Shown here one piece after another: positions 5,751 through 47,221 of a stretch of 64,000 nt of DNA. Each line of letters opens with the position of its first letter. Within the stretch, counting starts at the first letter, position 1. The position numbers and the translations under genes are program-made. The notes beneath the pieces are model-generated. The model did no database searches. It was not told the origin of the DNA and saw nothing but the letters and a program-made list of their open reading frames with translations. Source of the stretch: Squalus acanthias (Eukaryota); the NCBI GenBank assembly GCA_030390025.1, contig CM059432.1, forward strand, positions 45,076,001-45,140,000, given 5' to 3'.

Positions 5751-8577
5751 TTGAGAGGTCGCACAACACCAGGTTATAGTCCAACAGTTTTATTTGAAAT
5801 CACAAGCTTTCGGAACTATCGCTCCTTCCTCAGGTGAAGTAAATTGGATACAGAATCGTCAGAGCATATATAGATGGAAAAAAAAGCATGTGTACTTTAC
5901 AATTGCAGACCAATAAATTAAATCATCCTGACTATCTGCCGAGGTGTGATAAAGTTAATTAAGTCAGCCAGGAAGGTACCACATCAAAAGACATAGCAAG
6001 ATACAACTGAGACAATGAGGTGAAGTCGCAGGGGTTCTAACGTGTCAAAAGCTGCCGTCTGTATGTAAAACGAAAAGCTTTAAAAAAAAAAATTTACTTT
6101 TTTACTGGGAAAATTTTTACTTTTTTACTGGGAATCACATCTGTGAACAAGCTAACGACGACTCGAGTCCGGATCACGTCATGTATCGTGACATAAACCC
6201 AAGATCCCGATTGAGACCGTCTTCATGAGTGCAGAACTTGGCTATCAGTTTCTGCTCGATGATTTTGCGTTGTCGTGTGTTTCTAAGGTTGCCTTGGAGA
6301 ACGCTTACCCGCAGATCCGAGGCTGAATGTCCTTGACTGCTGAAGTGTTCCCCGACTGGGAGGTAACAATCCTGCCTGGCGATTGTTGCGCGGTGCTCGT
6401 TTATACGTTGTCTCAGTGTCTGCATGGTCTCGCCGATGTACCATGCCGCGGTGCATTCTTTCCTGCAACGTATGAGGTAGACAACGTTGGCCGAGTCACA
6501 TGAGTATGTACCATGTACCTGGTGGGTAGTGTCCTCACGTGTGATGGTGGTATCTGTGTTGATGATCTGGCATGTCTTGCAGAGTTTGCCATGGCAGGGT
6601 TGTGTGGTGTCGTGGTCGCTGTTATCCTGAAAGCTGGGTAATTTGCTGCGAACGATGGTACTTCTGAGGTTAGGCGGCTGTTTGAAGGCAAGTAGTGGAG
6701 GCGTGGGGATGGCCTTAGCGAGGTGTTTGTCGTCATCGATGACATGTTGAAGGCTGCGAAGAACATGTCGTAGTTTCTCCGCTCCGGGGAAGTACTGGAC
6801 GACGTAGGGTACCCTGTTGGTTGTGTCCCGTGTTTGCCTTCTGAGGAGGTCTATGCGATTTTTCGCTGTGGCCCGTCGGAACTGTCGATCGATGAGTCGA
6901 GCGTCATATCCCGTTCTTACGAGGGCGTTTTTCAGCGTCCGTAGGTGTCCATCGCGTTCCTCCTCGTCTGAGCAGATCCTGTGTATTCGCAGGGCTTGTC
7001 CATAGGGGATGGCTTCTTTAACATGGTTAGGGTGGAAGCTGGAGAAGTGGAGCATCGTGAGGTTGTCCGTGGGCTTGCGGTAGAGTGAAGTGCTGAGGTG
7101 TCCGTCTTTGATGGAGATTCGTGTGTCCAGGAATGAGACCGATTCTGAGGAGTAGTCCATGGTGAGTTTGATGGTGGGATGGAACTTGTTTATGTTATCG
7201 TGTAGTCTTTTCAGTGATCCTTCGCCATGGGTCCAAAGGAAGAAAATGTCGTCGATGTATCTGGTGTACAGCGGTGGCTGGAGGTCCTGTGCAGCGAAGA
7301 AGTCTTGCTCGAACTTGTGCATGAAGATGTTGGCGTATTGGGGTGCGAATTTGGTCCCCATGGCTGTTCCGTGTGTTTGGGTAAAAAAATGGTTGTCGAA
7401 GGTGAAGACATTGTGGTCAAGGATGAAGCGGATGAGTTGTAGGATGGCGTCTGGAGATTGGCTGTTGTTGATGTTGAGTACTGAGGCTGTTGCAGCGATG
7501 CCGTCATCGTGGGGGATACTGGTGTAGAGTGCCGATACGTCCATCGTGGCAAGGAGTGTTCCTGGTTCAACTGGTCCGTGGGTGCTGAGTTTCTGTAAGA
7601 AGTCTGTAGTGTCGCGACAGAAGCTGGGGGTTCCCTGTACGATGGGTTTCAGAATGCCCTCGACGTATCCAGAGAGGTTCTCACACAGGGTTCCATTGCC
7701 TGATACGATAGGACGTCCGGGTGTGTTGGCTTTGTGTATCTTTGGGAGGCAGTAGAAGTCTCCCACGCGGGGAGTACGTGGGATGAGAGCGCGTAGGATG
7801 TTTTGAAGGTCTGGATCGAAGGTCTTGATCAGTCTATTGAGTTGGCGGGTGTGTTCTTTGGTCGGATCTGCGGGTAGCTGTCTGTAGTGTTCCTGGTTGT
7901 CCAGTTGTCGGTATGCTTCTTTACAATAGTCCGTTCTGTTCTGTATGACGATGGCTCCTCCTTTGTCCGCTGGTTTGATGACAATGTTGCGGTTGGTCTT
8001 GAGAGCGTGGATGGCGTTGCGTTGTGCTCGGGTGACATTCTGGACTGTCTTGTGAGTGCGGCTGATGAATCTGGCGTTGATGCATTTCCTGACAGCTTGA
8101 GCATACATGTCAAGCTTGGGGCAGCGACCCTCCGGAGGGGTCCAGTTTGACTCTTTTTTCTTCGGTTGCTGCACTGCGAGTCCCTCTGTCTGCTGTTCTG
8201 GATCATTGATTGTCTCATTGGGTTTGTTGCTGACATCTTGGGATTTGTGGAAGTATTCCCGGAGCCTCATTCTCCTGATGAATTCCTCCGTGTCTGCCGC
8301 GAGACCGATGGGGTCCATTTTGGTGGTTGGGCAGAACTTGAGCCCTAGGGCGAGAACTTCGATTTCGTCTGGTTGAAGGGTATGGTCGGACAAGTTGACG
8401 ATGGACTTCCCTGTGGTTGCAGCCGTGGTACCGGGGGAGGCTTGGTTGCTGCTGGTGGTGATGCCGAGTTTCTCAAGCTTCCTGTTCTTGATGCGCATGT
8501 AGGCAGCGTAGTTCCGTTGCCTCGTCTGTTTGGTGGTGTCTCGTAACTGGTCTGCTGTGTCCTGAGCACAGGCTGAG
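5751..8577 (-). mobile_element. Penelope-like element (Poseidon-type), 5'-truncated
   Basis: RT + GIY-YIG ORF and a 3' region with HHR and AATAAA. Candidate TSD ACAGTA at 5745-5750 and 8578-8583. Confidence 0.93.
5800..5837 (-). ncRNA. Minimal type I hammerhead ribozyme (family A)
   Basis: Minus strand UCAC-CUGAGGA-AGGAGC GAUA GUUCC-GAAA-GCUU-GUGA: both core boxes, stem I UCAC/GUGA, and a palindromic AAGCUU stem III. Confidence 0.85.
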
Positions 8578-8588
8578 ACAGTACACAT
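6174..8588 (-). CDS. Penelope-type reverse transcriptase + GIY-YIG endonuclease (804 aa, uninterrupted)
   Basis: RT motifs IKPADKGGA, FYCLPKIHK..PGRPIVS, MDVSALYTSIP, GTAMGT, RYIDD and YRKPT. GIY-YIG motif NVVYLIRC..YIGET..LRQRINEH and C-terminal GLN. Confidence 0.95.
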   Translation of the reverse strand: MCTVSACAQDTADQLRDTTKQTRQRNYAAYMRIKNRKLEKLGITTSSNQASPGTTAATTGKSIVNLSDHTLQPDEIEVLALGLKFCPTTKMDPIGLAADTEEFIRRMRLREYFHKSQDVSNKPNETINDPEQQTEGLAVQQPKKKESNWTPPEGRCPKLDMYAQAVRKCINARFISRTHKTVQNVTRAQRNAIHALKTNRNIVIKPADKGGAIVIQNRTDYCKEAYRQLDNQEHYRQLPADPTKEHTRQLNRLIKTFDPDLQNILRALIPRTPRVGDFYCLPKIHKANTPGRPIVSGNGTLCENLSGYVEGILKPIVQGTPSFCRDTTDFLQKLSTHGPVEPGTLLATMDVSALYTSIPHDDGIAATASVLNINNSQSPDAILQLIRFILDHNVFTFDNHFFTQTHGTAMGTKFAPQYANIFMHKFEQDFFAAQDLQPPLYTRYIDDIFFLWTHGEGSLKRLHDNINKFHPTIKLTMDYSSESVSFLDTRISIKDGHLSTSLYRKPTDNLTMLHFSSFHPNHVKEAIPYGQALRIHRICSDEEERDGHLRTLKNALVRTGYDARLIDRQFRRATAKNRIDLLRRQTRDTTNRVPYVVQYFPGAEKLRHVLRSLQHVIDDDKHLAKAIPTPPLLAFKQPPNLRSTIVRSKLPSFQDNSDHDTTQPCHGKLCKTCQIINTDTTITREDTTHQVHGTYSCDSANVVYLIRCRKECTAAWYIGETMQTLRQRINEHRATIARQDCYLPVGEHFSSQGHSASDLRVSVLQGNLRNTRQRKIIEQKLIAKFCTHEDGLNRDLGFMSRYMT

Positions 8589-8757
8589 GGCACAAACTGT
8601 GCTGGTCCAAGCAACCCCACAGCTTAGGATGTTGGGAAGTCATAGCAGGGTCATCTTGAGGCCTAGCTCAAGCAGGTGTCCCAGGAGGCCCAAACTGACA
8701 CTCAGCACATTGTCACCTCTCTGACTTCAGCCACTGAGGAAACATATAAAAGGAGCA

Positions 8758-8911
8758 CGATAGCAAAATACTGCGGATGCTGGAAATCCGAAATAACAAC
8801 AGAAAACGCTGGAAAAACTCAGCGGGCCAGACAACATCCGTGGAGAGAGAAAGAGTTAACGTTTCAGGTCGATGACCTTTCGTCAGAACTGGGAAGAGCC
8901 GGAAATCAAAA
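8758..8911 (-). mobile_element. Solo Penelope 3' end (family B) with HHR
   Basis: 14-bp TSD ATATAAAAGGAGCA (8744-8757, 8912-8925). Homologous to 21300-21430, which lies downstream of a GIY-YIG frame. Confidence 0.88.
8854..8890 (-). ncRNA. Minimal type I hammerhead ribozyme (family B)
   Basis: AGUU-CUGACGA-AAGGUC AUC GACCU-GAAA-CGUU-AACU, with palindromic AACGUU. Confidence 0.85.
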
Positions 8912-9361
8912 ATATAAAAGGAGCATATTGGGTTCAAGAGCACATAAATGATTCAGGTTCAGGAAAGGGAAGCACAATAGAGCCACACACACACAAATCA
9001 CTTGTAGGCAATAAATATTTGGTAGCAATTTAAACAATTATGTGCCCAGAGAGTGTTCTTGCTATTGTCTTGGGTAATGTTTCATCAGAGAAAAGAATGG
9101 GGATAAATAAGACTTGAGATGCAATATTGCCCAATGCTGGGTAGGGTGTAGTTAGCCGTTGTATTGAGCATATGGCTGTACATGTGTTCGAGGCCATAGG
9201 TTTCTTATTTGGTCGTTTTGTCTAAGAAAACCTGCCATTTCTTCTGTGTGCTCCTGGGGGGTCTTCTGGTTCCAGTGGGTTTGGATCCTCATGCAATAGC
9301 TCTATGTGGTTGCAGGCAGCATATGAGCACTTGAGTATCTGAAGATGAATGAGAGAAAGTC

Positions 9362-9810
9362 TTTCATTTAAGTAGTGCCTTTCATGACCTCAGGATGTCC
9401 CAAAGCACTTTACAGCAAATTAAGTAGTTTTGAAGTGTAGTCACTGTTGTAATGTAGGAAACGCAGCAGCCAATTTGCACACAGCAAGCTCCCGCAAACA
9501 GCAATATGATAATGAGCAGATAATCTGTTTTAGTGATGTTGATTGAGGAATAAATATTGGCCAGGACACCGGGGATAATTTCCCTGCCCTTCTTCAAAGT
9601 AGTGCTGTGGGATCTTTTCCATCCACCTGAGAGGGTAGACAGGGCTTCAATTTAACATCTCATCTGAAAGACGACACCTCTGACAGTGCAGCACTCCCTC
9701 AGTACTACACTGGAGTGTCAGCCTAGATTTTTTTTGTGCTTCAGTCTCTGGAGTGAGACATGAACCCACAACCTTCTAACTCAGAGGTGAGAGTGCTACC
9801 ACTGACCCAC
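9362..9810 (-). mobile_element. tRNA-derived SINE (SacSINE1/DeuSINE-like), near full length
   Basis: Minus-strand head GTGGGTCAGTGGTAGCACTCTC..GGGTTCATGTC (A/B boxes). The body is shared with 18285-18645, 56250-56468 and 47120-47221. The family name is from recall. Confidence 0.75.
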
Positions 9811-9867
9811 GGAAGAAGGTGTTGTGGCTGCTGCTGAGGTTGCAAGTATTGACATACATGATTCTGT

Positions 9868-10090
9868 GCTCATGTGACACACAAGTTGCACATTGAGGAA
9901 GTTACATTCCTTACAGGTCACCTGTTCAAGGCAGTGTTAGTGACATCCCTGTGGGTGCCTGGAAGAATCCTGATGCATAGTAATTGAAGGCAATGGTGCC
10001 ACTTAGTGTCACTAGTAGTACTGTGTATGTGGTGCACTCTTTCACAACCTTTTCATTGAATCATAGCCTTCTGAGGCACGATTCCTCAGA
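9868..10090 (-). pseudogene. Degraded Harbinger transposase relic
   Basis: The minus strand gives SEESCLRRL*F..AFNYYASGFFQ..FLNVQLVC (HARBI1-family motifs), with internal deletions. Confidence 0.7.
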
Positions 10091-11430
10091 CAAATTCAAT
10101 CCGGCCAATTACCGCCCCATCAGCAAAGTGGTGGAAGGTGTCGTTGACAGCACTATCAAGCAACACTTACTCACCAATAACCTGCTCACCAATGCTCAGT
10201 TTGGGTTCTGCCAGAAACACTCAGCTCCAGACTTCATTACATGTCCAAACATGGACAAAAGAACTGAATTCCAGAGGTGAGATGAGAGTGACTACCCTTG
10301 ACATCAAGGCAGCATTTGACCAAGTGTGGCATCAAGGAGCCCTAGTAAAATTGAAGTCAATGAGAATAAGGGGGGAAACTCTCCAAAGGCTGGAGGCATA
10401 CCTAGCACAAAGGAAGATGGTTGTGGTTGTTGAAGGTCAATCATCTCAGCCCCAGGACATTGCTGCATGAGTTCCTCAGGGCAGTGTCCTAGGCCCAACT
10501 ATCTTCAGCTGCTTCATCAATGACCTTCCCTCCATCATAAGGTCAGAAGTGGGGATGTTAGCTGATGATTGCACAGTGTTCAGTTCCATTTGCAATTCCT
10601 CATATAATTAAGTAGTCCATGCCCGCATGCAGCAAGATCTGGACGACATTCAGGCTTGGGCTGATAAGTGGCAAGTAACATTCGCCAGGCAATGACTATG
10701 TCCAACAAGCGAGAGTCTAATCACCGCCCCTTGACATTCAACGGCATTACCATCACCGAATCCTCCACCATCTACATCCTGGGAGTCACCATTGACCAGA
10801 AACTTAACTGCACCATACACATAAATACTGTGGCAACAAGAGCAGGTCAGAGGCTAGGTATTCTGCAACGAGTGTCTCACCTGCTGACTCCCCAAACCAT
10901 TTCCACCATCTACAAGGCACAAGTCAGGAGTGTGATGGAATACTCTCCACTTGCCTGGATGAGTGCAACTCTAACACCATTCAAGAAGCTTGACACCATC
11001 CAGGATGCTTGATTGGCACCCCATCCACCACCTTAAACATTCACTTCCTCCACCACCGGCGCACCGTGGCTGCAGTGTGTACCATCTACAAGATGCACTG
11101 CAGCAACTCGCCAAGGCTTCTTCGACAGCACCTCCCAAACCCGTGACCTCTACCACCTAGAAGGACAAGGGCAGCAATCGCATGGGAACAGCACCACCTC
11201 CAAGTTCCCCTCCAAGTCACACACCATCCTGATTTGGAAATAGATCGCCGTTCCTTCATCATCGCTGGGTCAAAATCCTGGAACTCCCTCCCTAACAGCA
11301 CTGTGGGAGTACCTTCACCACACGGACTGCAGCGGTTCAAGAAGGTGGCTCGACACCACCTTCTCAAGGGCAATTAGGGATGGGCAATAAATGCTGGCCT
11401 TGCTAGCGACGCCCAGATTCCAGGAACAAA
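10090..11430 (+). mobile_element. CR1/L2-clade 'family 2' LINE, 5'-truncated, frameshifted
   Basis: NPANYRPIS, LDIKAAFDQVWH, VPQGSVLGP, LADD, IYKAQVRSVMEY. 3' end GGGCAATAAATGCTGGCC. Confidence 0.92.
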
Positions 11431-11524
11431 TTTAAAAAAAGACATATTTGTGTAGTTTGCCTTAAATAAATAAATATATGTAGCTTGAAGCATAGTTGAT
11501 GGTGCAGCGAATATACTTGTGATA

Positions 11525-11667
11525 TGCAAAAGCAAAATACTGCAGATGCTGTAAATCTGAAATAAAAACAGAAATTACTGGAAATACTCAGCAGGTCAGG
11601 CAGCATCTGTGGAGAGAGAAACAGAGTTAACGTTTCAGGTCAATGACCCTTCGTCAGAACTAGGGAT
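11525..11667 (-). mobile_element. Solo Penelope 3' end (family B) with HHR
   Basis: 14-bp TSD ATATACTTGTGATA (11511-11524, 11668-11681). Confidence 0.88.
11625..11661 (-). ncRNA. Minimal type I hammerhead ribozyme (family B)
   Basis: AGUU-CUGACGA-AGGGUC AUU GACCU-GAAA-CGUU-AACU. Confidence 0.85.
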
Positions 11668-13047
11668 ATATACTTGTGATACAACCTGATCTTCATCCCT
11701 CCTCCCCTTCTTTGTCCAGAAAAGATAAAAACGGTGGTATTCTCATCCTGCTGGCAGTTTAAATGTGAGGAAATAAATAGGTACAAACCGTACAATTGAT
11801 CCTAGCAATGTTTCTGGAAGTAACACAAATGAAAATAAACGTTCCCAAAAAAATACTTTCAAAGTTAGACTTTTCAGCTCTGTCACATGAGGGGATGGAG
11901 CTTCAAGGGGAATCTGCATTCCATTTATGCTCGCCAATGGTATTGATGGCAATGAACACAACACCCCTTCAGTAGCTCATTATTCTGCTGATTCAAATAC
12001 TAATATCAACATTGCTTGGGTTTTCAGCGAGATTGCTAATCGCTGACCTCATGCCTGGCTGGTAATGGTTGACCAGCATGAAATGGGCAGGGAAATGTTG
12101 TTTTTCATCTCTGCCCATTATTCTAACCCCTAACACTGACTTTATGCTACCACTGTGGCCATATAGGAATGAGAGATTTTTCCGATTTTCTGTGTTATTC
12201 TAGTAGCTGAAAAATTATTTTTCTATTGTTGCACTGTCTAAATAAATAATACAGCTTCCTACTCTAGTGTTTGTTTCAGGTGTTGATTTGAAGACAAAAC
12301 ATGATTGTTTCCCTTTCCTGGGTCTTAAAATAGATTTAGCATGCATAGGTATATTTAGACACAAAACACTGATTTTTGCTTCTGATAATATTACAAGTAT
12401 TTTTCGTAAATTTGTAGTTCATCAATAAGGGAAAAAAGCACTGTCAATTATATTGGCACATAGAATTTAACAAGGGTTGCTCAGCATTTGGTTTGCTCTA
12501 ATTTCTCTAGATAGTTGCTTTCTGGAAGTTGCAACCGTGTGTCTCTTATTGTTACTGGGGCAGTTTTGTAACCAGACTGAGAATGTACCTATGATAATTT
12601 TGTGAAGAATCTCTCTAGAAGTTAACCTTTTTATTTTAGTTTAAACAGGTTAATGCTTCTGTTAAAATAGTCGACAGAGGAATGTTATATGAATTAATTA
12701 AGCTTTCGCAAACAGTAATTTCTAGGATATAATGAACAGAGCAGTAAGATAATCTGGCTGTATGTGGTAGCTGCATAACAGTAGGACAAAAGTATACAGT
12801 AAAATGCCAGTGGGGTCCAATAGATTAACTGAGAATCTGTTGGCAGTGCACAGCTGTTACTTTGACATTATAAAAATGCTGTCACACCAGCACCTATTAA
12901 CAAATCCCTTAAATTCAACATTGTTCAGCCCAGCAATGGTTGAAAATTGCTCGGAATAATTCATGCTATTTCACAATGCTTGAGGCTTTGTAAACTGAAC
13001 TGAGGGTGTAAGTAAATGAAATTCAGCAAATCAAAGCTGAAGACTTT

Positions 13048-13796: not shown

Positions 13797-14232
13797 TTTA
13801 TGTACTGTACCACACTGAAGCTTTTGGAGGTCCAAAAGTACTGGATATCTGAATTTAGCCCTTGGTCTGCCAGTTGCAAGGAATGGGGCAGGTTATGCAG
13901 TAAGAGAAGTTGCTGAAAGTAGCACTAAGAATATATTTGGACTGTGTGAGTTTTCTGAGTTCTGATCATTTTATGGATTTGTCAAACATGACTTTATTTT
14001 GAGACAATGTTCAGTGAATCTGTTATCAACAATCTTAAGGGTGTTGAAATAAAGCAAGGAAGTGAAATGTTGATTTTACAAAAGAAAAATACTGTGGAAA
14101 TCTAAAATAAAAATGCAGGAAATACTCAGCAAGTCAGGCAGCATCTGTGGAGAGAGAAGCAGAATTAACGATTCAGGTCGATGACCTTTCATCAGAACTC
14201 ATAAAAAGTAATCAACCTCAAACGTTAACTCT

Positions 14233-15044
14233 GGCCGCGATTTTGTAAATAGATGCGGGTTGGGAGCGGGTCAGGTGGTTTCTGGCTTCCAGTCCCGTCC
14301 CCAACAACATCTGGCCCACGGACATCATTTTACGTTGATTGACCTTGTTAAGCCCGCCCTACGAGCTTGCCGGCCAATTAAGAGGAAGCCGGTCAGATGA
14401 CATCACAGAATCACAGAATCACAGAATCCCCACAGTGCAGATAGAGGACATTTCGGCCCATCGAGCCTGCACCGACACATATCCCACCCTATCCCCGTAA
14501 CCCCACGTGTTTAATCCCCCTAACACTAAGGGTCAATTTATCATAGCCAAATCAACCTAACCCGCACATCTTTGGACATCATTTGATGACGCTTCAGCTG
14601 CCGGTTTTCTTAAAGGGACCACGTACAATTTTTCTTTGACAGCTCATTTCTCAGTGTTTGACAGCATTGAAGTGCTGCAAACACTGACAATTACTGTACA
14701 AAGGTGAGCTCTTGCACCCAGGCTCTCCAGTGACTCCCTCCATAGGCTGGAACAGATGGCAGCTGCAGGTGAGGTTACAGAAGTGATCTCTCACTAGTGA
14801 GAGAGGTTCTCCCAATAAGGTGGGACTAGACATCGATTTCAAAACATTTTACCTACAGAAAAATGGCTTTAATCCTCTTCCCGCCGCTAGGTGTCGGTTC
14901 CATGCGCAAATCGGGGACCCGACACTTGGGAAAATTGTTTGGAGGCGAGTTGACAGCGGGATCGAAACCCGCCGTCAATCAAAATGATTTTGACCCTTGA
15001 CCAGCCTTCAAACCCGCCCTCTCAGTGCTGATAAAATCGCGGCC
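14233..15044. mobile_element. Harbinger-type MITE
   Basis: Perfect TIR GGCCGCGATTTT / AAAATCGCGGCC. The TSD TCT is confirmed by re-joining the interrupted Penelope end (AACGTTAAC-TCT-GTTTCTC). Confidence 0.9.
14405..14577 (-). mobile_element. HE1-like SINE 3' fragment with CR1-type (ACAGAATC)n tail
   Basis: Octamer tail, CR1-like 3' stem, and TAACCCGCACATCTTTGG core. Flanked by a GACATCA duplication. The family name is from recall. Confidence 0.65.
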
Positions 15045-15344
15045 TCTGTTTCTCTCTCCACAGATGCTGCCTGACCTGCTGAGTATTTCCAGCATCTTCT
15101 GTATTGTAGATTTTACATACCATTTCAACAGGGATGCTTACTACCATTATTTTAAACACTTTTCCTTAACAGAATAACCATTTGCATAATTTTTTGATTA
15201 AATTGTTCTCTCAATTAATTCAGAATTTTTTTTTAAATATGTAGAATATCTCAGCATTCTAGCAAGCTAAGGTGAGTGTGAAACTTCAAGATTTTGGGGT
15301 TCAAAGCTAGGCCTGTATCTTCCATCCTTCATGTCAAGTTCCAC

Positions 15345-18645: not shown

Positions 18646-19822
18646 TAACTAGAGTAAGAAGAGCAGAAAAGATCCTAATGTGTAACATATCTAAATTCCG
18701 AATTAGAAGGAAAGTTGGTAAAAAAAATTGGGGGTCAAAACTCGTGCCACAAACCCTCTTCATCTACAGAGCTGATCTCAACAAAAAGAGCAAACATAAT
18801 CAACCAAACTGCTGAAAATAATAGCTAAAAAGCTGACATTGGGGTTTTTGGCCATCCCTTTATTCAAATTATATCAGCAAAATTATGAATGAGTTGATTC
18901 CAGCATTAAGAGCCAGAAATAGCATTGACATCCAAACAAAATCATTTCCGCCACATTTACATATTTCAATGAAGCTCCCACCTATTTCTGGCAGAAGCTT
19001 CCTGTATCAGTTGGACACAGCCCTCAGAAATATGCATCATACTCTTTGTGAACAGAGCTCTACCGTCAGTGATTTTGTCCCATATTTCTGGTCAGTTAAA
19101 CCCCTGATGTGCCCATTTAAAGGGTGTAAACAATGTAAATATTCACCCTACTCAGTCAGACCATAAGCATGAGGAGCTCGCTTTATCCCACCAATTTCCA
19201 TTATCCACCAGTGGATCTCCTGCAGTATGGCAGATAGTTGAGATTCTGCTGTACTGGTGTTATAGCACTGTAGCATTTGTTTATAATGATGGATCTTTCC
19301 TGTCATGTGGCGCATTATGGTATTGATTGTGGTTATGGAGATCTCTCTGGCCTAGAAAAATCTGTATTCAAGAAGGACGGCATAGAGATGGTGAAAAGAG
19401 ATAAAATTTATAGTATTATTATATTAATAAGACAATTACATGGCAGATTTTGATTTGAATCGATTTTGCATGGCACAGACATAAATCTGTAGTGTAACTG
19501 CAGTTCATGTCACATGATCTGAGCATGAATCTATCAAAAACAGTGTAAAACCACCTGGAGTCCCACACCATTCACTGCACATCAGTTACAGTCAGAATTT
19601 TTGTTTTGCATTCAGCTAATATTTTATCATATCCTCAAGCCATCCTCAAGCATTTTACAACCAATGGCTTATTTTTCAAGTAGCAACTGTCATTATGTAG
19701 GCAGCCAAATGTGCACAGCAAGATCCCCCACACAGGAAATGAATGAATGACCAGGTAAAGTAAAAACAGAAAATGCTGGGAATACTCAGCAGGTCAGGCA
19801 GCATCTGTAGAGAGAGAAACAG

Positions 19823-19860
19823 AGTTCAACGTTTCAGGTCGATGACCCTTCGTCAGAACT
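19823..19860 (-). ncRNA. Hammerhead ribozyme motif (family B, left arm)
   Basis: AGUU-CUGACGA-AGGGUCAUCGACCU-GAAA-CGUU-G-AACU, with one extra nt near the cleavage site. Confidence 0.7.
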
Positions 19861-20679
19861 GGAAAAAGTTAGAGATGTAACAGAATTTAAGCAAGTGCAG
19901 GGGCAGGGAAAGGGAGGAGGGGAGGGAAGAACAAAAGGGAAGATCTGTGATAGGATGGAAGGCAGGAGAGATTAAAAGACAAAAGGGATGATGGTGCAAG
20001 GCAAAAGGAGATGGTAATAGGACAAGTTAAGAAACAATAGATGACTCTAGATGATGTGTAAATGGCAATGGCAGAATCATCAACTTGATGTTGAGCCCAG
20101 ATGGCTATAAAGTACCTAATCGAAAGATGCGGTGCTGTTCCTCGAGCTTATGTTGAGCTTCGTTGGAACAGTGTAAGAGGCCGAAGATGGAGAGATCAGA
20201 GTGGAGTGGAGAATTAAAGTGACAGGCAGCTGGAAGCTCGGGGTCACACTTACGGACTGAATGGAGGTGTTCCGCAAAGCGGACACCCAATCTGCGTTTG
20301 GTCTCCCCAGTGTAGAGGAGACCGCATCGTGAGCAGCGAATACAGTATACTAAATTGCAAGAAGTACAAGTAAATCACTTTTTCACCTGGAAGGAGTGTT
20401 TGGGGTCCTGGACAGTGGGAAGGGAGGAGGCAAAAGGGCAGGTGTTACAGCTCATGCGCTTACACGGGAAGGTGCCGTGGGAAGGGGAAGGGGTGTTGGG
20501 TATGATAGAGGAGTGGACCAGGGTGCTGCTCCCTGTGCGACACCCTGGTCCACTCCTCTGTCACCCCCAACACCCCTTCCCTTTCCCATGACACCTTCCC
20601 GTGCAAGCGCCGGAGATGCATCACCTGCCCTTTTACCTCCTCCCTTCCCACTGTCCAGGGCCCCAAACACTCATTCCAG

Positions 20680-21009
20680 GTGAAACTTCGATTTAATTCT
20701 ACTTCTTGCAATTTAGTATACTGTATTCGCTGCTCAAGATGTGGTCTCCTCTACATTGGGGAGACCAAATGCAGATTGGGTGACCGCTTTGCGGAACACC
20801 TCCGTTCAGTCCGTAAGCATGACTCCGAGCTTCCGGTCACGTGTCACTTTAATTCTCTGCTCCACTCCCACTCTGATCTCTCCATCCTCGGCCTCTTACA
20901 TTGTTCCAATGAAGCTCAACGTAAGCTCGAGGAACAGCACCTCATCTTTCGAGTAGGCATTTTACAGCCTTCTGGACTCAACATCGAGTTCAACAATTTC
21001 AGACTATAA
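20680..21009 (+). pseudogene. GIY-YIG endonuclease domain of Penelope family B (truncated ORF end)
   Basis: NLVYCIRCSRCGLLYIGETKCRLGDRFAEH..LEEQHLIFRVG..PSGLNIEF. A mirror copy lies on the minus strand at ~20085-20390. Confidence 0.9.
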
Positions 21010-21299
21010 GCTCGGCCCCTATTTTATTTTTTCTTTATTTTTTTCTTTTTGCCTTTTTTTCTCTCACATGGCAGCTAGATGATTCTGCCATTGCCATTTA
21101 CACCTCATCTAGAGTCATCTTTTGTTTCTTAACTTGTCCCATTACCATCTCCTTTTGCCTTTCACCATCATCCTTTTTGTCTTTTAATCTCTCCTGCCTT
21201 CCATCCTTTCACAGACCTTCCCTTTTGTTCTTTCCTCCCCTCCTCCCTTTCCCTGCCCCTGCACTTGCTTAAAAATCTGCTACAACACTAACTTTTTCT

Positions 21300-21336
21300 A
21301 GTTCTGATGAAGGGTCATCGACCTGAAACGTTAATT
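21300..21336 (+). ncRNA. Hammerhead ribozyme motif (family B, right arm)
   Basis: AGUU-CUGAUGA-AGGGUCAUCGACCU-GAAA-CGUU-AAUU. Confidence 0.82.
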
Positions 21337-21879
21337 CTGTTTCTCTCTCTTCAGATGCTGCCTGACCTGCTGAGTATTCCCAGCATTTTCTGTTTTTATT
21401 TCAGATTTTCAGCATCCACAGTATTTTGCGTTTGAATGACCAGATGATCTGCTTTTGGCCAGACTGCCCCAATAGTAGCTGAGATGTTGAAATCTACAGC
21501 TGGACCCTCTTCAGTCAGAGCTTCTCAGGGTTGCCAACCACAGCAATCCCAAGTGCCCTCATCAGAGGCTTGGCAGCCTTCCACCTCCCATGCTGAAGCC
21601 TTGTAGGAGCACCAGAATAGGTTGGAGAGCACTAAGGTCAGGCACTAGTGGCTTGTACCAGGGTTAAGCTCAGTTTCTGGATGTGTTTATGTTCATTATC
21701 AGTAGCACTTTCTAATGGAATTCTTATTGTGTAGAGATTGTTTGGTGAGTATTTGTTGACCAGGTAATCTAATTCGACAGAAATACCCATGCTGGTGTTG
21801 GGTTGAATGCATTTTTAAGGATTGTGGCAGGATTGGGCCTTATGTTGGTGCAGGGGAATAGAGATAATTTAGCCAAAGT

Positions 21880-26385: not shown

Positions 26386-26533
26386 TGCAAATGGATGCTG
26401 TAAATCTGAAATAAAAGTATAAAATGCTGGAAATACTCAGCAGGTCAGGCAGCATCTTGACCTGAGACGTGAACTCTGTTTCTCTCTCCATGGATGCTGC
26501 CTGACCTGTTGAGTATTTCCAGCATTTTCTGTC
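26386..26533. mobile_element. Short tail-outward inverted pair of Penelope family-B ends
   Basis: AAAATGCTGGAAATACTCAGCAGGTCAGGCAGCATC ... GATGCTGCCTGACCTGTTGAGTATTTCCAGCATTTT. The HHR is only partial. Confidence 0.8.
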
Positions 26534-28481
26534 TTCTCAGAGGTCTTCTTTTACCATCCAAGGCCCTGCAAGTGTCCAGCAGCATTCCCTGCACACTTTT
26601 AAAACTTTTAACATTTATTGCACCAAGCCACTACTTCAACAAAATGTAAAAAATTCCAATCCAAAAGCTTAAATGCCAACTTACCTGAAAGATGTGTGTG
26701 TCCCTTTAAGAAGTGCTGACAGCTCACTTTTCAGAACAAGCTTAGAACCTAGTGCTAAACTCAGTGCAATGGTCCAAGTTCGCAGAGCGTGACATTAAGT
26801 CGATGTTGCACATCGACTGACATCGTGCTCTCCATATTTGAATATCCAGGGTCAGCGCTGCTATCAGCAGCGCTAAGGCCCTCACCAAAATGGCGGCCAC
26901 CAAGTCCCATGCCAGAGAAGGGCATTAGAGCGGAGGCCGCCATTATTTTCCAGCCTTGCGGTGGTAACTTGTGGCATAACGGTAGGGAATTTCTAGGCCA
27001 AAGTATTTTTGTTTAGTTATAATTAGCTCCTATTCCTTTAAATCCACTCATAGGACATGAACAGTTTTTTAAAAAAGCAATTGCAGTTTAGATTTGTCTG
27101 TCAAAATAGCAAAGATTGACAGCGGGTAGGAAACCCGCTGTCAAACTGCCTCCACGCGAGTCTCCCAGGTGTCGGGTCTGTCAGCCGCGAACTGACCCAA
27201 CACCAAGTGGCGGGGGATACAATTCAGCTTGTTAAATGGCTTGTTAAGATCCAATTTAAGACTATTTTGAGGCTTACTTCTAATTTTACGTTCTCCCCCA
27301 CGGGTTACCCGCTGTTCAGGGAACACACCAGCTCACCCTGGCGTGTTTTGAGTCTGCTCTGATGTTTCTGAAAAGCTGACATCTGCAAAAGTGGTGTAAA
27401 GGATGCCATGTTGCAGATGGTGAGTTTCAGAGCGCAGAAAATGTTGGTTACTGCATTTTTAATACATATAGAGATTTCTTTAGCTTACAAGTTTTTAGAT
27501 CCAACTGTATGTCCAGTGCCACCTCATTGGGAGAACCTCGCTCACCAATGACAGATCGCTTCTGTCATCTCACCTGCAGCTGCCATCTATTGCAGCAACA
27601 TCGGAGCCATTGAAAAAATCAGACCTTGGTCCTCCGAATCATTCCACGATCAGCCCCAACACCAACATCACCAGGCACACCAACATCACCGACAACATCA
27701 CCAACCTTCTCCGCCATCAACTGATGCTGCACTGGACACAGGGCATCAGCTCCTGACAACATTGCTGCCCGGGAGGCCAGCGATGGCATCACCATGGCCA
27801 GATTTTCTTCACTTGATGCTGTAAATCCTGGCTGCCACATAATGCGCCAGTTTGACACCATCCCACACCAGCACCGTGAAGCATCCCTATAATGTCCAAG
27901 CCATTCCATGCACATACATCACTATAGCGGGGTGGGGCGGGGGGGTGGGGTGTGGGAGGAGAGAGGTGGGGTAATTATCTCTGAACAATGACTGGAACTC
28001 AGTAAGACACTTCTCAAGGTGCGCTCAGATCTGTCCAATAAGGGGCACTTTTGGAAAAATAGATTTCACTGTATGACAACACATTACCAGAAACATCACA
28101 TGGACATTGGCTAAACCGCTCAAGAGCCTACCCTTGTGTGTTGCTAGTTGGTATGCTTGCAGCAGGATGCGGGTGAGTGTGAGGGGTGGCTAGTGAGATG
28201 GGGAAGTGATAAGGTAGATAGAGAGCATTGGGTGGAGGTGCAAGGTAAGTTGGTGTGAGTAAGGATGTGCAGGAGAAGGGTATGGAAGGCAGAGTGATGG
28301 GGATGGGTTGAGTGGCACAGCAGGGTGAGTTTGAGTGTGGATTTGCAGTAACGTTTTGTGATCCACTGAGATCATTGAAAGGTTGGCACCATTGCAGCCA
28401 GGGACCCCTGACGACATCCCTGCCTTTGCCCTCCTGTGCAATGTGCAACCAGGCTGCGTTGGTGTACTGGGGAGGTCCCTT

Positions 28482-30390
28482 AACATAAGAACATAAGAAA
28501 TAGGAGCAGGAGTAGGCCAATCGGCCCCTCGAGCCTGCTCCGCCATTGAATAAGATCATGGCTGATCTGATCCTAACCGCCAATCTACTATCACAGAACC
28601 ATCTCCTGCATCTAACAGAATTGCACACACGAAATAGGAGCAGAATCAGGCTACACGGTCCCTGGGCCCGCTCCACTACCCACAGGGCCATGACCGGATC
28701 CGAACCTAGACTCATGTCCAAATTCCTGCCCGCTCCCCGTAACCCTTAATGCCCTTTACTTCTAGGAAACTGTCTATTTCTGTTTTAAATTTATTTAATG
28801 ATGTAGCTTCTACAGCTTTTTGTGGCAGCATATTCCATGGACCTACCACCCTCTGAGTGAAGTAGTTCCTCCTCATCTCAGTTTTGAAAGAGCAGCCCCT
28901 TATTCTAAGACTATGTCCCCTAGTTCTAGTCTCACCCGTCATCGGGAACATCCTCCCCGCATCCACCCGATCCAACCCCTTCACAATCTTATATGTTTCA
29001 ATAAGATCGCCTCTCATTCTTCTGAACTCCAATGAGTAGAGTCCCAATCTACCCAACCTCTCCTCATATGACCACCCCCTCATCCCCGGGATTAACCGAG
29101 TGAACCTTTTTTGCACTGCCTCGAGAGCAAGGATGTCTTTCCTTAAGTAAGGACACCAAAACTGTATGCAGTATTCCAGGTGCGGTCTCACCAATACCTT
29201 GTACAACTGAAGCAATACCTCCCTATTTTTATATTCTATCCCCCTAGCAATGAAAGCCAACATTCCATTTGCCTTCTTAATCACTTGCTGCACCTGCATA
29301 CTAACCTTTTGAGTTTCGTGCACCAGGACCCCCAGATCCCTTTGCACTTCAGTACTCTCCAGTTTCTTGCCATTAAGATAATAAATTGCTCTAGGATTTT
29401 TCCTGCCAAAGTGCATCACCTCACACTTTCCAGCGTTGTATTCCATCTGCCAAATCTCTGCCCACTTACTTAGCCTGTCTATGTCCCCTTGCAGGTTTTT
29501 TATGTCCTCCTCACTCACTACTTTCCCTCCCATCTTTGTATCATCTGCAAATTTTGATATGTTACACTTGGTCCCTTCCTCCAAATCGTTAATATAGATT
29601 GTAAAGAGTTGGGGACCCAGCACTGACCCCTGTGGAACACCACTAGTTACTGATTGCCAGTCTGAGAATGAACCATTTATCCCAACTCTTTGCTTTCTGT
29701 TAGATAGCCAATCCTCTATCCATGCCAGAATATTACCCCCAATCCTGTGATTTTTTACCTTAAGCAATAATCTTTTGTGTGGCACCTTGTCAAATGCCTT
29801 TTGGAAGTCTAAATACACTACGTCCACTGGTTCCCCTTTATCCACTCTATATGTTACTTCCTCAAAGAACTCCAGCAAATTTGTCAAACATGACTTCCCC
29901 TTCGTAAAACCATGCTGACTTTGTCCTATTAAATTATGATTATCCAAATGTCCTGTTACTGTTTCCTTAATAATGGACTCCAAAATTTTACCTACCACAG
30001 ATGTTAGGCTAACCGGTCTATAGTTACCAGCCTTCTGTCTACTGCCCTTTTTAAATAAGGGTGTTACATTAGCAGTTTTCCAGTCTGCCGGGACCTTAGC
30101 GGAATCCAGGGAGTTTTGAAAAATTATTACCAATGCATCTACAATCCCTACCGCCACTTCCTTCAAGACTCTAGGATGTAAGCCATCAGGTCCAGGTGAT
30201 TTATCTGCCTTGAGTCCCATTATTTTACCGAGTACCACTTCCTTAGTGATTTTGATCGTGTTTAGCTCCTCTCCCCCTATAGCCCCCTGTTTGTCCAGTG
30301 TTGGGATATTCTTAGTGTCCTCTACTGTAAAGACTGATACAAAATATTCATTCAGTGTTTTTGCCATCTCCATATTTCCCACCATTAATT
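28482..30390 (-). mobile_element. Young 5'-truncated CR1 LINE
   Basis: (CTTATGTT)n tail and flanking TCCCTT duplication (28476-28481, 30391-30396). Confidence 0.95.
28712..30385 (-). CDS. CR1 ORF2 reverse transcriptase portion (557 aa, uninterrupted, endonuclease missing)
   Basis: [51 protein letters not shown]. Confidence 0.93.
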   Translation of the reverse strand: MVGNMEMAKTLNEYFVSVFTVEDTKNIPTLDKQGAIGGEELNTIKITKEVVLGKIMGLKADKSPGPDGLHPRVLKEVAVGIVDALVIIFQNSLDSAKVPADWKTANVTPLFKKGSRQKAGNYRPVSLTSVVGKILESIIKETVTGHLDNHNLIGQSQHGFTKGKSCLTNLLEFFEEVTYRVDKGEPVDVVYLDFQKAFDKVPHKRLLLKVKNHRIGGNILAWIEDWLSNRKQRVGINGSFSDWQSVTSGVPQGSVLGPQLFTIYINDLEEGTKCNISKFADDTKMGGKVVSEEDIKNLQGDIDRLSKWAEIWQMEYNAGKCEVMHFGRKNPRAIYYLNGKKLESTEVQRDLGVLVHETQKVSMQVQQVIKKANGMLAFIARGIEYKNREVLLQLYKVLVRPHLEYCIQFWCPYLRKDILALEAVQKRFTRLIPGMRGWSYEERLGRLGLYSLEFRRMRGDLIETYKIVKGLDRVDAGRMFPMTGETRTRGHSLRIRGCSFKTEMRRNYFTQRVVGPWNMLPQKAVEATSLNKFKTEIDSFLEVKGIKGYGERAGIWT

Positions 30391-30786
30391 TCCCTTGTGC
30401 CCTTGGAAGGGAAGAGAACCTCCCTGTGTGCTGTGACTCCCTCCATAAGCATATGGAGGGAGTCGTTGGAGAGCCTGGGTATAAGCGTTCCCCTTTGTGC
30501 AGTGCTTGTCAATGTTTGAAGCACCTCAATGCTGTCAAACACTGACAGAACAACTGTCAAACTCAATGTGGACGTGGTCCCTTTAAGGAAACCGGCTGAT
30601 GACGTGTCATCAAATGACGTCATCAGACCCGCTTCCTGTTAATTGGCCGGAAAGCCCGCAGGGCGGGATTAACAAGGCCAATCAAGGGAAAATCACGTCT
30701 GCAGAGCGGCTGCAGCTGGGAGTGGGACCGGAACCCAGAAACCAGCTCTCCCACCACCATCCCGCCTCCTCCATTAAATTTGCAGC

Positions 30787-37048: not shown

Positions 37049-37420
37049 TATGACTCTATGGGGGAGAAATTCAGTATCGCCCCGTTTGGGGCGCGATTAT
37101 CGGTCGGGCGCAAAGTTTAGCGCCTGCCGCTAATTATCGCCTCCGACTGCAAACTTGGCTTTTATCGCCCCTGGAGGTGATTGGAGCGCTAAATCAGGCG
37201 CTGCACACCTGTCTTACGGCGCAAAGGCCGAGAAGCGAGGCGCTAACTCAGAGCGCGGGCGCAGCGCTGGTGATGTCAGTTAGCGATGGAACACAGACAC
37301 ACTAGCGCCGGACAGTTCTTAAAGGGGAAGGTCGATTTTGCTCTCCAGTCACACCCTGCTCATTGGAGCCTTGAATCTCGGCCTGGAGAGACCTGTGACT
37401 ACATTTTCCAGCCAAGGACT

Positions 37421-39235
37421 ATGGAGAGGGTGAGAGAACGAGCTCAGCGCTTCAGTGAGTGGGCCTTGGAGGCTCTGGTTGGTGCGGTGGAGTGTAGAAG
37501 ATCTATACTCTACCCTGAGAGTGGCAGGAGGCCTTTGCCGCGCGACTACAGAAGAGTGTGGAGAGAGGTGGCTCAGCACGTCTCCTCCAGGAGCATGGTG
37601 CCCAGGACCCATACTCAATGTCGCAAAAAGTTTAACGACCTCACTCAGGTCGTCAGGGTGAGTGGCTTTTTTTCAATACCTCTCCATCCCTGCATCTCAA
37701 CCTCACTCTATGGCCAGAGGGTCTTAAAACCCCAATGCCCAACACTCATCCAACACCAATGGCCCTCTCATGAAACACACACACACATTCCACACTTTAC
37801 ATACAGTAAGGGCTATTCAACTATGGGAGGCACATCAGGCAAGACCATGGCTGCATACATTAAGGGCTACTCAATTATGGGAGACACATAAGGCAAGACC
37901 ATGGCTGCATACATTAAGGGCTATTCAATTAAATGGAGGCACATCAGGCAAGACCATGGCTGTATATTTACTCAGACGCCGTCCTTTTTCTTGCAGGCCA
38001 AGCAATCTCATAATAGGAGACAGCAACAACGGACGGGTGGAGGGCAGCCTCAGCTGCAACCCCTCAGTGATCTTGAGGCACGCGTCCACAGATTTGTGGC
38101 AAGCCAGGTGATCGGTCCCGTCGCCCCTGGAGACGCCGACTCCGTTCTGGACAGCAATGGTAAGGTCATCAGCTTTCTCTCCTCTCTCATTCCACTTGTC
38201 GCTCACAACACCAGCCTTTGACACTTTCAATCCAACTTACTAAATCGCTTCACTCGTTCCTCCCTTACTGTCCCCCTGTCCTCACGCTAAAGCCACTCTT
38301 GTACCTCCCTGCTTTCAGATGGTGATTCACCAGCTGAGGAGACGGGCCCTGACGCTGCCAGTGGGAGTGAAGCTGCAGGCGAGGATGAAGAGGAAGCCGG
38401 AGCATCAGCGCCACCCTCTCCCGAGGAAGCCCATGCCCACACTGGGAACACATCTTCCCTGGAGGGGAGCAGGGGGGAAGGGTCTGATGAGGGTGAAGCT
38501 CGAGGACCCAGCAGGCTGCAGCAACGCGATGTGGCTAGGGAAGCTCGGGGGCCTTCTCCTCGGAGGGAGAGTAGGCCAGTGAGTCCTGCTGCACTGGACG
38601 CAGAGGAGGAGCGGCTCATCGCTGAAATGAACACCCAGGCGGTGCACATGCACACTCAGCTCATGGGTGCAGTGGGAAGGGTGCCCGAAACCATTGATGC
38701 ACTGGCAAGGAGTGTGGAGCACTTCGCTGTAGCACAGGCGGATGCCACGCTAAAGCTTAGTGCTGCAATTCAGTCACTGGCTGCCGTGATCCCATCTCAG
38801 ACTGCTCTCATGCAGACTCAGATTGAGGCCACGCAAGCACTGACTGCTGCCATTGTCGCTGGTTCGGACACATTTCCCCAGGGCTCTCACCGCGCCGCAG
38901 CAGGCCAGCAATCTGTGCTCCAGCAGATTGCTCTGGATGCTGATGTGCTGCCCTGTGGGAGTGCCAGTGTGTCGGTCGAGCAGGGAGTTGCTGTCCTCTC
39001 TCAAGAGGACAGCATTCCTGCTTCCACCACTGTCACTTCTCCATTGCACTTCCCACCGCCTGTAGCCCAGACTGCTGCCGCCCATGCAGAGTTGGTGCAG
39101 TCTGCAGCCGGGCCCTCCAGGCCCAGAGCTGGTCGAGGCCGTCCTTCAAGGGCATCTGTAGTCTCAGGTCTGACTATCAGCAGCCTTCACCAGCCTTGCT
39201 GCAGCCACTGGGGCCTCATTACGGAGGAGCAGTAG
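37421..39235 (+). CDS. Harbinger Myb/SANT-like (trihelix) DNA-binding protein, 3 exons: 37421-37657, 37997-38159, 38319-39235 (~438 aa)
   Basis: RFSEWALEALV..VWREVAQHVS..RTHTQCRKKFNDL and RTGGG. Canonical splice sites GTGAGT/TTGCAG and GTAAGG/TTTCAG with compatible phases 0 and 1. The extreme C-terminus may be frameshifted. Confidence 0.85.
37807..37968 (+). repeat. 54-bp minisatellite x3 in intron 1 of the Myb gene
   Basis: Unit TAAGGGCTAYTCAAYTATGGGAGRCACATMAGGCAAGACCATGGCTGCATACAT starts at 37807, 37861 and 37915. Confidence 0.92.
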
Positions 39236-39592
39236 GGTGGGAAGGGAGGAAGTGCGCAAGGGAAGGAGATCACTCTCGAAGGGCAAAAAGTAGGAGGTGT
39301 GACGAAATGTTGGTCAATTTTTTATTAAAGGCCGAGGTTCGTGTTCAAACTTTTGTTTAGTGTTTTGGACATTATCTCCAGGTTGTGAGAACCAGTTATG
39401 TTAATGAATGATTTTTTGTGTTTGTTTCTATTAATTTGTCATGAAGAAATGACACACACAGAGTTTATAAAATAAAAAAGTTTTTGTATTCAAAATGTAC
39501 AGGTTTGGCCTTTGGAATCATTGCTGCCTTGGCCGGCTTTGGGGTTGCGGGTTGCTTTCATTCATGTTGTTCTCCATGGCAGAAGCCATTTC

Positions 39593-40736
39593 CTAAGTAG
39601 GGGCCTGGAAGCGGCTTGTTATCAGCCGTTGACGGACGGCCCTTGCAGTTTCAACATTGTGGGCCTCCCTCCCGCCTTGGTGCTGCTGCTGATCATCCTC
39701 CTCCTCTTCCTCCTCCTCCGGTGGTGGCATTGGCTGGGTCCTGAGGATTGCCAGGTTATGAAAAATGCAGCACACAACTATGAAGAGGGAGACTCGCTCA
39801 GGCGAGTACTGCAGGGCTCCTCCTGAGTAGTCCAGACAGCGGAACCGTTGCTTGAGCATGCCGATCGTCTGCTCAATGATGTTCCTGGTGGCGAGATAGC
39901 TCTCATTGTACCGCAGCTCAGCAGGGGTGTTGGGGTTACGGAGCGGTGTCATCAGCCAGGTGCAGAGTGGATAACCCTTGTCCCCGAGGAGCCTACCACT
40001 TGGCTGATGCGGTGCCTGGAAAAGGTCTGGCACACCAGTCTGGTGCAGGATGAAAGCATCGTGGCTGCTGCCAAGATAGCGGGCATTGACTGCGAGTATC
40101 AGCTGTCTGTGGTCACAGACCAACTGGACGTTTAAGGAGTGGAACCCCTTGCGGTTTCGGAAAACCTCTGCATTCTCATGCGGTGCCCGCAATGCCACAT
40201 GCGTGCAGTCAATGGCGCCAGGCACCATGGGGAAGCCCACTATCCTCGCAAAGCCCAATGCGCATTCATGCTGTTTGGCCCGGGTCATCGGGAAAGAGAT
40301 GTACTGGCGTCTCCTTTTATAGAGGGCATTTGTGACCTGACGGATACAGCAATGGACCGCAAACTGGGAGATATTGACGATGTCCCCAGTAGCTGCTTGA
40401 AAGGAGCCAGTGGCATAAAAATTCAGAGCCACTGTGACCTTCACTGCCACTGACAGAGACGTCCTGGTCCTCAGTTGAGGCTGCAGATCTGGCTGCAGCA
40501 GGTGGCAGAGCTCAGTGACCACCTCCTTGCTGAAAGCGCAGCCTGCGCAAACACTGCTCCTCAGACAAATTAATGTAGGAGAATTGTTGCCGAAATACCC
40601 TGGGAGGGTAAGGTCTCCTGTACAGAGGCCTGTTGGCTCTCATCCGTCTGGCCATGATTGCCACTCTCTCTCTGCGTCTCTGTTGCCTCCGATTCTGCAA
40701 GCGCAGGACGACGCCCCGAATCAGTGCAGCCCCTAT
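39593..40736 (-). pseudogene. HARBI1-family DDE transposase, lightly disabled
   Basis: GAIDCTHV, NRKGFHSLNVQLVCD, GSSHDA, LLGDKGY, RNIIEQTIGMLKQRFRCL. The start codon appears as ATA at 40736 (ATGGGGGCTGCA at 55821), and there is a +1 frameshift near 40533. Confidence 0.93.
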
Positions 40737-46650: not shown

Positions 46651-47221
46651 ACACTATCCCAATTACTTGCAGGGTTTCAAAGGAGGCCACCTTTAAGAGG
46701 TAGTCTTGCAGTGGAATAACTGTACATTGGCTGGCGTGTAGTTCCCAGTCAGAGCATTCATATCACTTTTGGATTGGTGGCTTTGAGGGATTGGATTAAT
46801 TTGATTGTAAATGAGCACAAACTAAAAAAGGCCTGAAAATCTCAAGCAGGAAATGTTCCAGTTTGAATAGCAAATCCATTTCACCATAACTAAAATCCTA
46901 CAAAATGTTATCTGAAAATACTAGCCGATTGTCTGTAGCATTGCTCATGGGTGTTGGTTGTTACACTGTTGCAGGAGGATGGTACTTAGGTAGAAGAGGG
47001 GCACATATAGCCACTGAAATAACTTGGAAAGAAGTTTGCAAGAGACAGTGAGTTAAATAAATAAATAGGATTTTCCTTTACCACATCAAATATATAATAA
47101 TAAATTCATTTGTTTCCATCATTTCCTACATTACAACAGTGACTACACTTCTAAAGTATTTCATTGGCTGTAAAGCGCTTTGGGACCTCCTGAGGTCATG
47201 AAAGACGCTATATAAATACAA

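Follow-up and report, generated by a model that had tools for sequence, protein, structure and literature searches.

One of the questions raised by a stretch of 64,000 nucleotides from Squalus acanthias (GenBank assembly GCA_030390025.1, contig CM059432.1, positions 45,076,001 to 45,140,000 of the forward strand; called here the window, in whose own numbering all positions are given) is how very short DNA copies that carry a ribozyme motif come to be inserted in a genome. Two such inserts, A and B, lie in the window, each with a hammerhead motif followed by a tail and each between target-site duplications (TSDs). An earlier note on this DNA regarded them as a possible retrozyme-like family, or one resembling short interspersed elements (SINEs), and offered two explanations: that the reverse transcriptase (RT) stalls at the hammerhead, or that a short non-autonomous ribozyme RNA is mobilised in its own right. 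Here we compare the two inserts with their relatives in the window and in public contigs. A and B are almost certainly short products of a Neptune-type Penelope-like element (PLE). For their shape we propose, at an even chance in our judgment, that the mRNA of the element starts at stem I of the hammerhead and stays uncleaved, that the PLE protein primes cDNA synthesis inside its 5' repeat, and that the cDNA runs off the RNA end.

Origin of the inserts

Both inserts correspond to the last ~137 nt of a PLE, that is, to its terminal module of a minimal type I hammerhead plus tail. The parent element is displayed by event E (Table 1), and its longer copy, at 20525-21432, includes the end of a GIY-YIG open reading frame (ORF). 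The plus arm of E holds, in this order, the end of this ORF, an untranslated region (UTR), the hammerhead and the tail, with the module less than 300 bp past the ORF. The endonuclease was recognised as Pfam PF01541 (E 5.7e-05, on 20509-21006), and the best matches of this ORF end, which we assign to family 1, are shark and ray proteins with 58-64% identity. The C-x4-C-x2-C linker before the endonuclease is kept in 5/5 alignment rows; a CX2-5CxxC linker marks Neptune/Nematis-type PLEs (PMC8557442; here and below, cited sources are represented by excerpts of their text) and for this reason the element is placed in that type. The RT region of family 1 lies outside the window, and a homologue (P0012) carries both RT and GIY-YIG. 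Further features of endonuclease-containing (EN+) PLEs are found as well, namely the minimal hammerhead in a terminal repeat, inverted pairs and a 30-40 bp tail. No homologue was found for a 43-residue frame that runs across the module.

The perfect 14-bp TSDs that had been reported for the two inserts are confirmed, both repeats being exact; among random pairs of flanks, 1/5000 had a common word of at least 14 letters. The insert ends, which had been placed 6-21 nt before stem I, measure 21 nt (A) and 6 nt (B), but the first 13 nt of A and 4 nt of B match neither long arm, homology to the parent element being confined to what follows, from ~8 nt before stem I in A and from ~2 nt in B. The left arm of the pair at 14081 (C-left), said to stop at a similar point, indeed ends 9 nt before stem I; its hammerhead core is mutated from GAAA to GAAT. 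The word self-contained describes the inserts well as they stand, but not their origin, since the module forms the 3' terminus of a longer PLE copy present in the window. At the element 5' junction both 14-bp TSDs end in ATAT, in two cases only. The G of insert A at parent position 21395 is a common variant in three species according to the contig comparison.

Do A and B form a lineage of their own? In the 93 columns common to the arms, B has 6 and 8 differences from the long arms and 11 from A, and none of the changes in these columns is exclusive to A and B (5 arms compared). Because B is nearer to the long arms than to A and the two share no exclusive change, they do not have the separate lineage that characterizes retrozymes without long terminal repeats (non-LTR retrozymes). 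The inserts contain no RNA polymerase III A or B box (by the usual consensus), and with 0 hits in the ARAGORN tRNA scan and 0 in Rfam they have no recognizable SINE head. Tandem head-to-tail arrays, which the earlier note suggested looking for, are absent for this unit among the 13 Tandem Repeats Finder rows of the window; 0/8 arms are permuted or start at the cut site, and no head-to-tail joint occurs among the 15 of 432 joint rows listed, which concern contigs only. An independent retrozyme- or SINE-like RNA is not supported, the inserts being the end of a PLE found in the window. Exact-pattern scans gave 0 matches in metagenome, viral and prokaryote genome contigs, and protein-led scans gave 0 in viral and genome contigs.

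It was rightly noted that the inserts hold sequence on both sides of the predicted cut; both span the site, so the template was not cut there. A circular or multimeric template, which the earlier note had allowed for beside an uncleaved one, is not needed, because uncleaved RNA is the main documented PLE substrate in vitro (PMC11167929). A cleaved template for A, B and the window copies was also considered and rejected, since 0/8 arms start at 21333 and no such start is found among the 24 of 2663 loose-end rows listed.

The hammerhead motif

A and B each contain a predicted minimal type I hammerhead ribozyme. In both of them stem I has 4 bp, an extra A follows A9, stem II has 5 bp and is followed by GAAA, and a palindromic AACGUU replaces stem III, so that the core, stems I and II, the palindrome at 15.2-16.2 and the extra base after A9 are all in place. 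Stems I and II are completely paired in 5/5 arms that hold them, and the hammerhead descriptor gave 5 sites in the window, A and B included, against 0 in 30 shuffles. One feature departs from the pattern: the G10.1-C11.1 pair, highly conserved in minimal hammerheads and usually G-C in truncated EN+ PLE insertions (PMC4209133), is A-U in 2/5 arms and G-U in 3/5. Rfam gave 0 matches at gathering score and 2 weak matches at E <=10, neither of them a hammerhead, and the ribozyme call therefore rests on motif and pairing. Neither the motifs nor the inserts stand out in folding energy (z -0.12 to -1.69, 7 sequences). A structured tail in the module is possible, if unproven: 2 compensatory pairs were seen, both from A, the same is reached by 40/500 shuffles, and RNAalifold picked a different fold.

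Clustering of 5' ends at stem I

Relative to C3 of the hammerhead core, the 8 arm starts in the window lie at -13, -12, -6, +10, +12, +49, -759 and -779. Thus 3/8 end within -14..-1 and none between -14 and -759, which gives p = 0.0008 under a uniform hazard and 0.005 against the downstream part only, with the -14..-1 zone picked after the fact and paired arms not fully independent. Contigs of four public runs (66583, 89975, 80932 and 4562 contigs) were aligned to 20860-21460; X1 is the run of the window's best-matching organism, X6 and X9 come from two other organisms, and X20 may be an RNA run. In X6 278 contigs, and in X9 279, diverge from the element directly ahead of 21300, the first base of stem I (median length 255). 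The flanks there are AT-rich and, with an agreement of 0.34, mixed. Relative to the tail, peak depth in 3 DNA runs reaches 0.63-0.90 at the hammerhead, stands at 0.26-0.40 in the UTR (100 nt upstream) and at 0.46-0.54 where the ORF ends; the profile is a step rather than a decay, a crude measure as depth is no copy number.

A second PLE family in the window, family 2, has a single short copy that also starts at stem I, with ~83 nt of other sequence ahead of it inside the TSD. Two PLE families with different upstream sequence thus have the same short-copy geometry. The clustering of 5' ends at stem I is probably real. The peak at the hammerhead on which the reading of the earlier note depended is moderately upheld in the window and in contigs of two other species; the separate RNA that the note also considered is not supported.

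A further pile-up in these alignments, before 21352, proved to be an artefact: positions 21350-21351 carry changes private to the reference, and the loose letters are themselves more element sequence. In events C (14212) and D (26457) the right arm starts at or in the stem II loop, which may be a second preferred 5' end, and a joint like that of D (opposite-strand, 21320/21353) occurs in 1, 3 and 6 contigs of three runs.

At the other end of the module, the 3' ends of the arms form two groups, 21396-21401 and 21418-21434, which are the same in short and long copies. Contigs of three organisms have loose-end pile-ups at 21400-21401 and 21429-21434, of which the one at 21434 coincides with the end of the reference copy. 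The two groups agree with the 30-40 bp PLE tail and with the pair of RT start sites in PAc, a Poseidon PLE from Anolis carolinensis (PMC11167929).

A run-off model for the short copies

The PLE protein of Anolis nicks DNA that is AT-rich and starts reverse transcription within uncleaved RNA, at two sites that lie 111-118 nt into an ORF beginning in the hammerhead; in vitro the product length tracks the template 5' end (PMC11167929). PLE mRNA starts within the terminal repeat (PMC2377424), and a rotifer pseudo-long terminal repeat (pLTR) is reported to contain TATA and initiator motifs (PMC3846280). A PLE mRNA would carry one copy of the module at each end. If the 3' module is primed, the result would be long, randomly truncated arms such as those of event E. 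Priming in the 5' module would give run-off after ~135 nt, because the mRNA starts in the terminal repeat and product length follows the template 5' end, provided that the first bases of stem I are the RNA start, set either by a TATA/initiator promoter or by trimming to that point. A, B and C-left all end past the whole motif, on its far side for the RT, which suggests that the template ends there. The outcome would be a discrete class of 135-155 bp, like an integrated retroviral strong-stop product, and such copies would lose the upstream TATA and so would mostly be dead ends rather than a self-propagating family.

In retroviruses, minus-strand strong-stop DNA arises by internal priming near the RNA 5' end, which yields a short run-off cDNA of fixed length. 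In the PLE model the primer would be the nicked target DNA and the product would be integrated, and the analogy is one of mechanism only.

A start at stem I is consistent with the candidate core promoter of the parent, in which the initiator-like A at 21300 is the first base of stem I and lies 32 nt after the TATA-like motif (by the usual TATA and initiator consensus). Family 2 has a TATA match of 8/8 at the same spacing before stem I. Among 28 metagenome loci with related GIY-YIG genes, 6 hold a hammerhead by the descriptor, one of which may not belong to the adjacent ORF, and 3/6 have a TATA match of at least 7/8 at -42..-32 of C3, ~31 nt upstream of stem I (p 0.005 by offsets). One metagenome contig (L012:940-1030) has a perfect TATA 31 nt before an initiator-like motif that abuts stem I, with a GIY-YIG match upstream.

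Several points weigh against this model. The other 3/6 hammerhead loci have no TATA motif, one of the positives is an A-run, and the -42..-32 window was fixed after the flanks had been viewed. In family 1 the TATA is weak, 6/8 in one arm and 5/8 in the other, and the presence of a module ahead of the ORF is assumed, just as an RNA 5' end at stem I is deduced from DNA. A and C-left reach 8-9 nt beyond the proposed +1, through pyrimidine-rich ambiguous sequence; the junctions have no consistent cap-derived G, and the pooled flank ends in C. The start site of the D. virilis Penelope lies ~120 nt upstream of the hammerhead (PMC4209133, PMC2377424). The pile-up at 21300 has a resolution of ~5 nt, because a private change of the reference at 21299 collects ends and sharpens the peak; with 24 of 2663 loose-end rows listed it has no full background, and the 21300 row of X1, a run with incomplete counts, is not among them. 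Finally, subfamilies with diverged UTRs could produce part of the depth step.

Alternative explanations

One explanation that dispenses with a special RNA end is ordinary 5' truncation of cDNA primed in the 3' repeat, with a hot spot at the T-rich stretch just upstream of stem I, where the RT would drop off or the cDNA would be joined to the target by microhomology. We regard it as rather unlikely, even though strong 5' truncation is the PLE norm (PMC8557442; bioRxiv 10.64898/2026.07.22.740005), 3/8 arms end downstream of C3 (+10, +12, +49), the joins of C-right and D-right, at or in the stem II loop, show short stretches of matching letters, and a small sample together with the private change of the reference inflates the peak. 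What argues against it is the interval from -14 to -759, where zero arms end, the depth, which shows no further fall from the UTR to the ORF end, and the unrelated family 2, which stops at the same structural point in spite of its other upstream sequence. The first option of the earlier note, that the RT halts at a hammerhead which is folded, bound by protein or dimeric, is unlikely. The pile-up at the first base of stem I would suit it; in a dimer the 5' strand of stem I would be paired in trans as the last barrier. The protein-assisted Anolis hammerhead (PMC11167929) and the two arms that end in stem II, with the contig joint of the same kind, also speak for it. However, the RT would reach the 3' strand of stem I and stem II first, and ends would be expected at or after 21316-21336; 4 bp are a weak block, and hammerhead mutants left the insertion size unchanged in vitro (PMC11167929). 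Stalling thus seems to fit poorly with A, B and C-left, which end after the whole motif has been copied, although the two stem II ends leave room for some of it.

The boundary might also be a 3' splice site: a short exon of the element, or exons of the host, would have been joined to the AG at stem I in the template RNA, and the unmatched 5' letters would be what is left of them. A branch-point-like CTAAC, a pyrimidine run and an AG stand directly before stem I (21288-21301; by the usual consensus), and a D. virilis intron ends at helix I (PMC4209133). We think this improbable, as the heterogeneous flanks at 21300 speak against one constant exon, C-left retains intron-like letters and the extra letters of A match neither long arm. 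The second option of the earlier note, an independent non-autonomous ribozyme RNA, circular or multimeric, that is itself mobilised, seems to us very improbable. It would account for the discrete insert size with TSDs, non-LTR retrozymes are proposed to descend from PLE terminal repeats and do occur as monomers (bioRxiv 10.64898/2026.07.22.740005), and PLE terminal sequences suffice in trans (PMC3846280). Against it stand the results given above: no tandem array in the window, no permuted arm or start at the cut site among the 8 arms, no head-to-tail joint among the joint rows listed, no exclusive change common to A and B, and no A or B box. A head-to-tail remnant as the source of the 13-20 extra letters of A was likewise rejected, their match to the insert's own tail being no better than chance (equalled in 491/2000 shuffles).

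Relation to known systems

The element type, the ribozyme, the inverted pairs and the tail are already known, and single dispersed minimal hammerheads have been ascribed to truncated PLEs (PMC4209133). Truncated or solo-pLTR EN+ PLE insertions resemble A and B in the minimal type I hammerhead with a palindrome for stem III, in the mostly single dispersed motifs, the head-to-head inverted pairs, the optional 30-40 bp tail and the TSDs (PMC4209133, PMC8557442); they differ in that no preferred 5' end at stem I is described in the excerpts of these two sources. PAc has in common with the window family an uncleaved template, two RT start sites that set the tail, ~100-130 nt past the hammerhead, and an in vitro product length set by the template 5' end (PMC11167929). 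It differs from the window family, which has the CxxxxCxxC linker of the Neptune/Nematis type, and in the excerpt of PMC11167929 the natural RNA 5' end is not tied to a short genomic size class. Non-LTR retrozymes (PMC7229834; bioRxiv 10.64898/2026.07.22.740005) are also short and non-coding, with a type I hammerhead, a long TSD and kinship to PLE repeats. Theirs, however, are tandem, with at least 2 units and circular RNA, and have canonical hammerheads in PMC7229834, whereas A and B are single and unpermuted, with a minimal motif and no separate lineage.

The open literature searched, a scope that left aside most subscription papers, Repbase and supplements, yielded no mention of 5' ends that favour stem I or of a run-off product. 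With slightly less than even confidence we suggest a wider rule: many PLE families would have a TATA/initiator promoter that places the mRNA start at the first bases of stem I, and cDNA primed in the 5' repeat would routinely run off at a fixed length and be integrated. If so, the solo minimal hammerheads that are abundant in animal genomes would be a distinct product class with a simple origin rather than random truncations, the ribozyme would stand at the very 5' end of the PLE message, and non-LTR retrozymes would arise from monomers that run-off copies provide. PLE start sites would already be mapped in genomes if the RNA 5' end is what short copies mark. How PLEs replicate and what their hammerhead does are open questions in the field (PMC11167929, PMC8557442). 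If the peak is a mere truncation hot spot, the inserts would be ordinary PLE debris.

Other copies and neighbouring elements

Table 1. Positions of the inserts, the parent element and related features in the window.
Feature	Position	Strand	Remarks
Insert A	8758-8911	minus	13 nt unmatched, then PLE end module (parent 21292-21429); diverged subfamily
TSD of A, element 3'-side copy, 14 bp	8744-8757		exact repeat
TSD of A, element 5'-side copy	8912-8925		exact repeat
Minimal type I hammerhead of A (predicted)	8854-8890	minus	stem I 8890-8887 / 8857-8854; core from 8886 (C3); stem II 8878-8866; predicted cut 8858/8857; descriptor scan and pairing
Insert B	11525-11667	minus	4 nt unmatched, then PLE end module (parent 21298-21434)
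TSD of B, 3'-side copy, 14 bp	11511-11524		exact repeat
TSD of B, 5'-side copy	11668-11681		exact repeat
Minimal type I hammerhead of B (predicted)	11625-11661	minus	core from 11657 (C3); predicted cut 11629/11628
Event E, head-to-head long arms	19744-21443		11-bp TSD (19744 / 21433); displays parent element
PLE ORF, C-terminal part	20509-21009	plus	C-x4-C-x2-C linker and GIY-YIG endonuclease
Candidate core promoter of parent	21268-21306	plus	weak TATA-like motif, 6/8, at 21268; initiator-like A at 21300
Hammerhead of parent long arm (predicted)	21300-21336	plus	core from 21304; descriptor scan
Optional tail, ~33 nt	21401-21434	plus	between two preferred 3' ends; arm ends and loose-end pile-ups
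Event C, head-to-head pair, same family	14072-15117		9-bp TSD (14072 / 15109); arm starts: left, 13 nt before C3; right, within stem II
Miniature inverted-repeat transposable element (MITE), 812 bp	14233-15044		splits right arm of event C
Event D, short head-to-head pair	26392-26535		arms start 49 and 12 nt after C3; no convincing TSD
Family 2 PLE, 821-aa open frame	6174-8639	minus	RT and GIY-YIG type; hammerhead core at 5833
Family 2 short hammerhead-plus-tail copy	47210-47404	minus	12-bp TSD (47210 / 47393); BLAST 47225-47309

Besides A and B, the window has three further events of their family, namely C, D and E. The centre of event E (20509-20560) is a palindrome with a loop and resembles the inverted junctions of rotifer PLEs (PMC3846280), and the minus arm of E is without 88 bp that span the stop codon. 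The MITE in event C has 12-bp terminal inverted repeats and a 3-bp TSD (TCT); it sits a few bases 3' of the hammerhead cut site, and fragments of it recur elsewhere in the window. Insert A lies ~105 bp upstream of the family 2 ORF, and no upstream hammerhead of family 2's own family was found there. By eye, the family 2 short copy (47225-47309) differs from its parent (5752-5835) in stem I on both sides, C-G having become U-A.

Elsewhere in the window, a Myb/SANT gene (37274-37891, plus) and a DDE_Tnp_4 transposase (39593-40639, minus) face each other, a pair at 37274-40639 that we take to be a Harbinger-type transposon. An RT of the long interspersed element (LINE) type is found as a 598-aa open frame with RVT_1 (28712-30508, minus), and a decayed LINE fragment, recognized by eye, lies at ~10060-11430 between inserts A and B.

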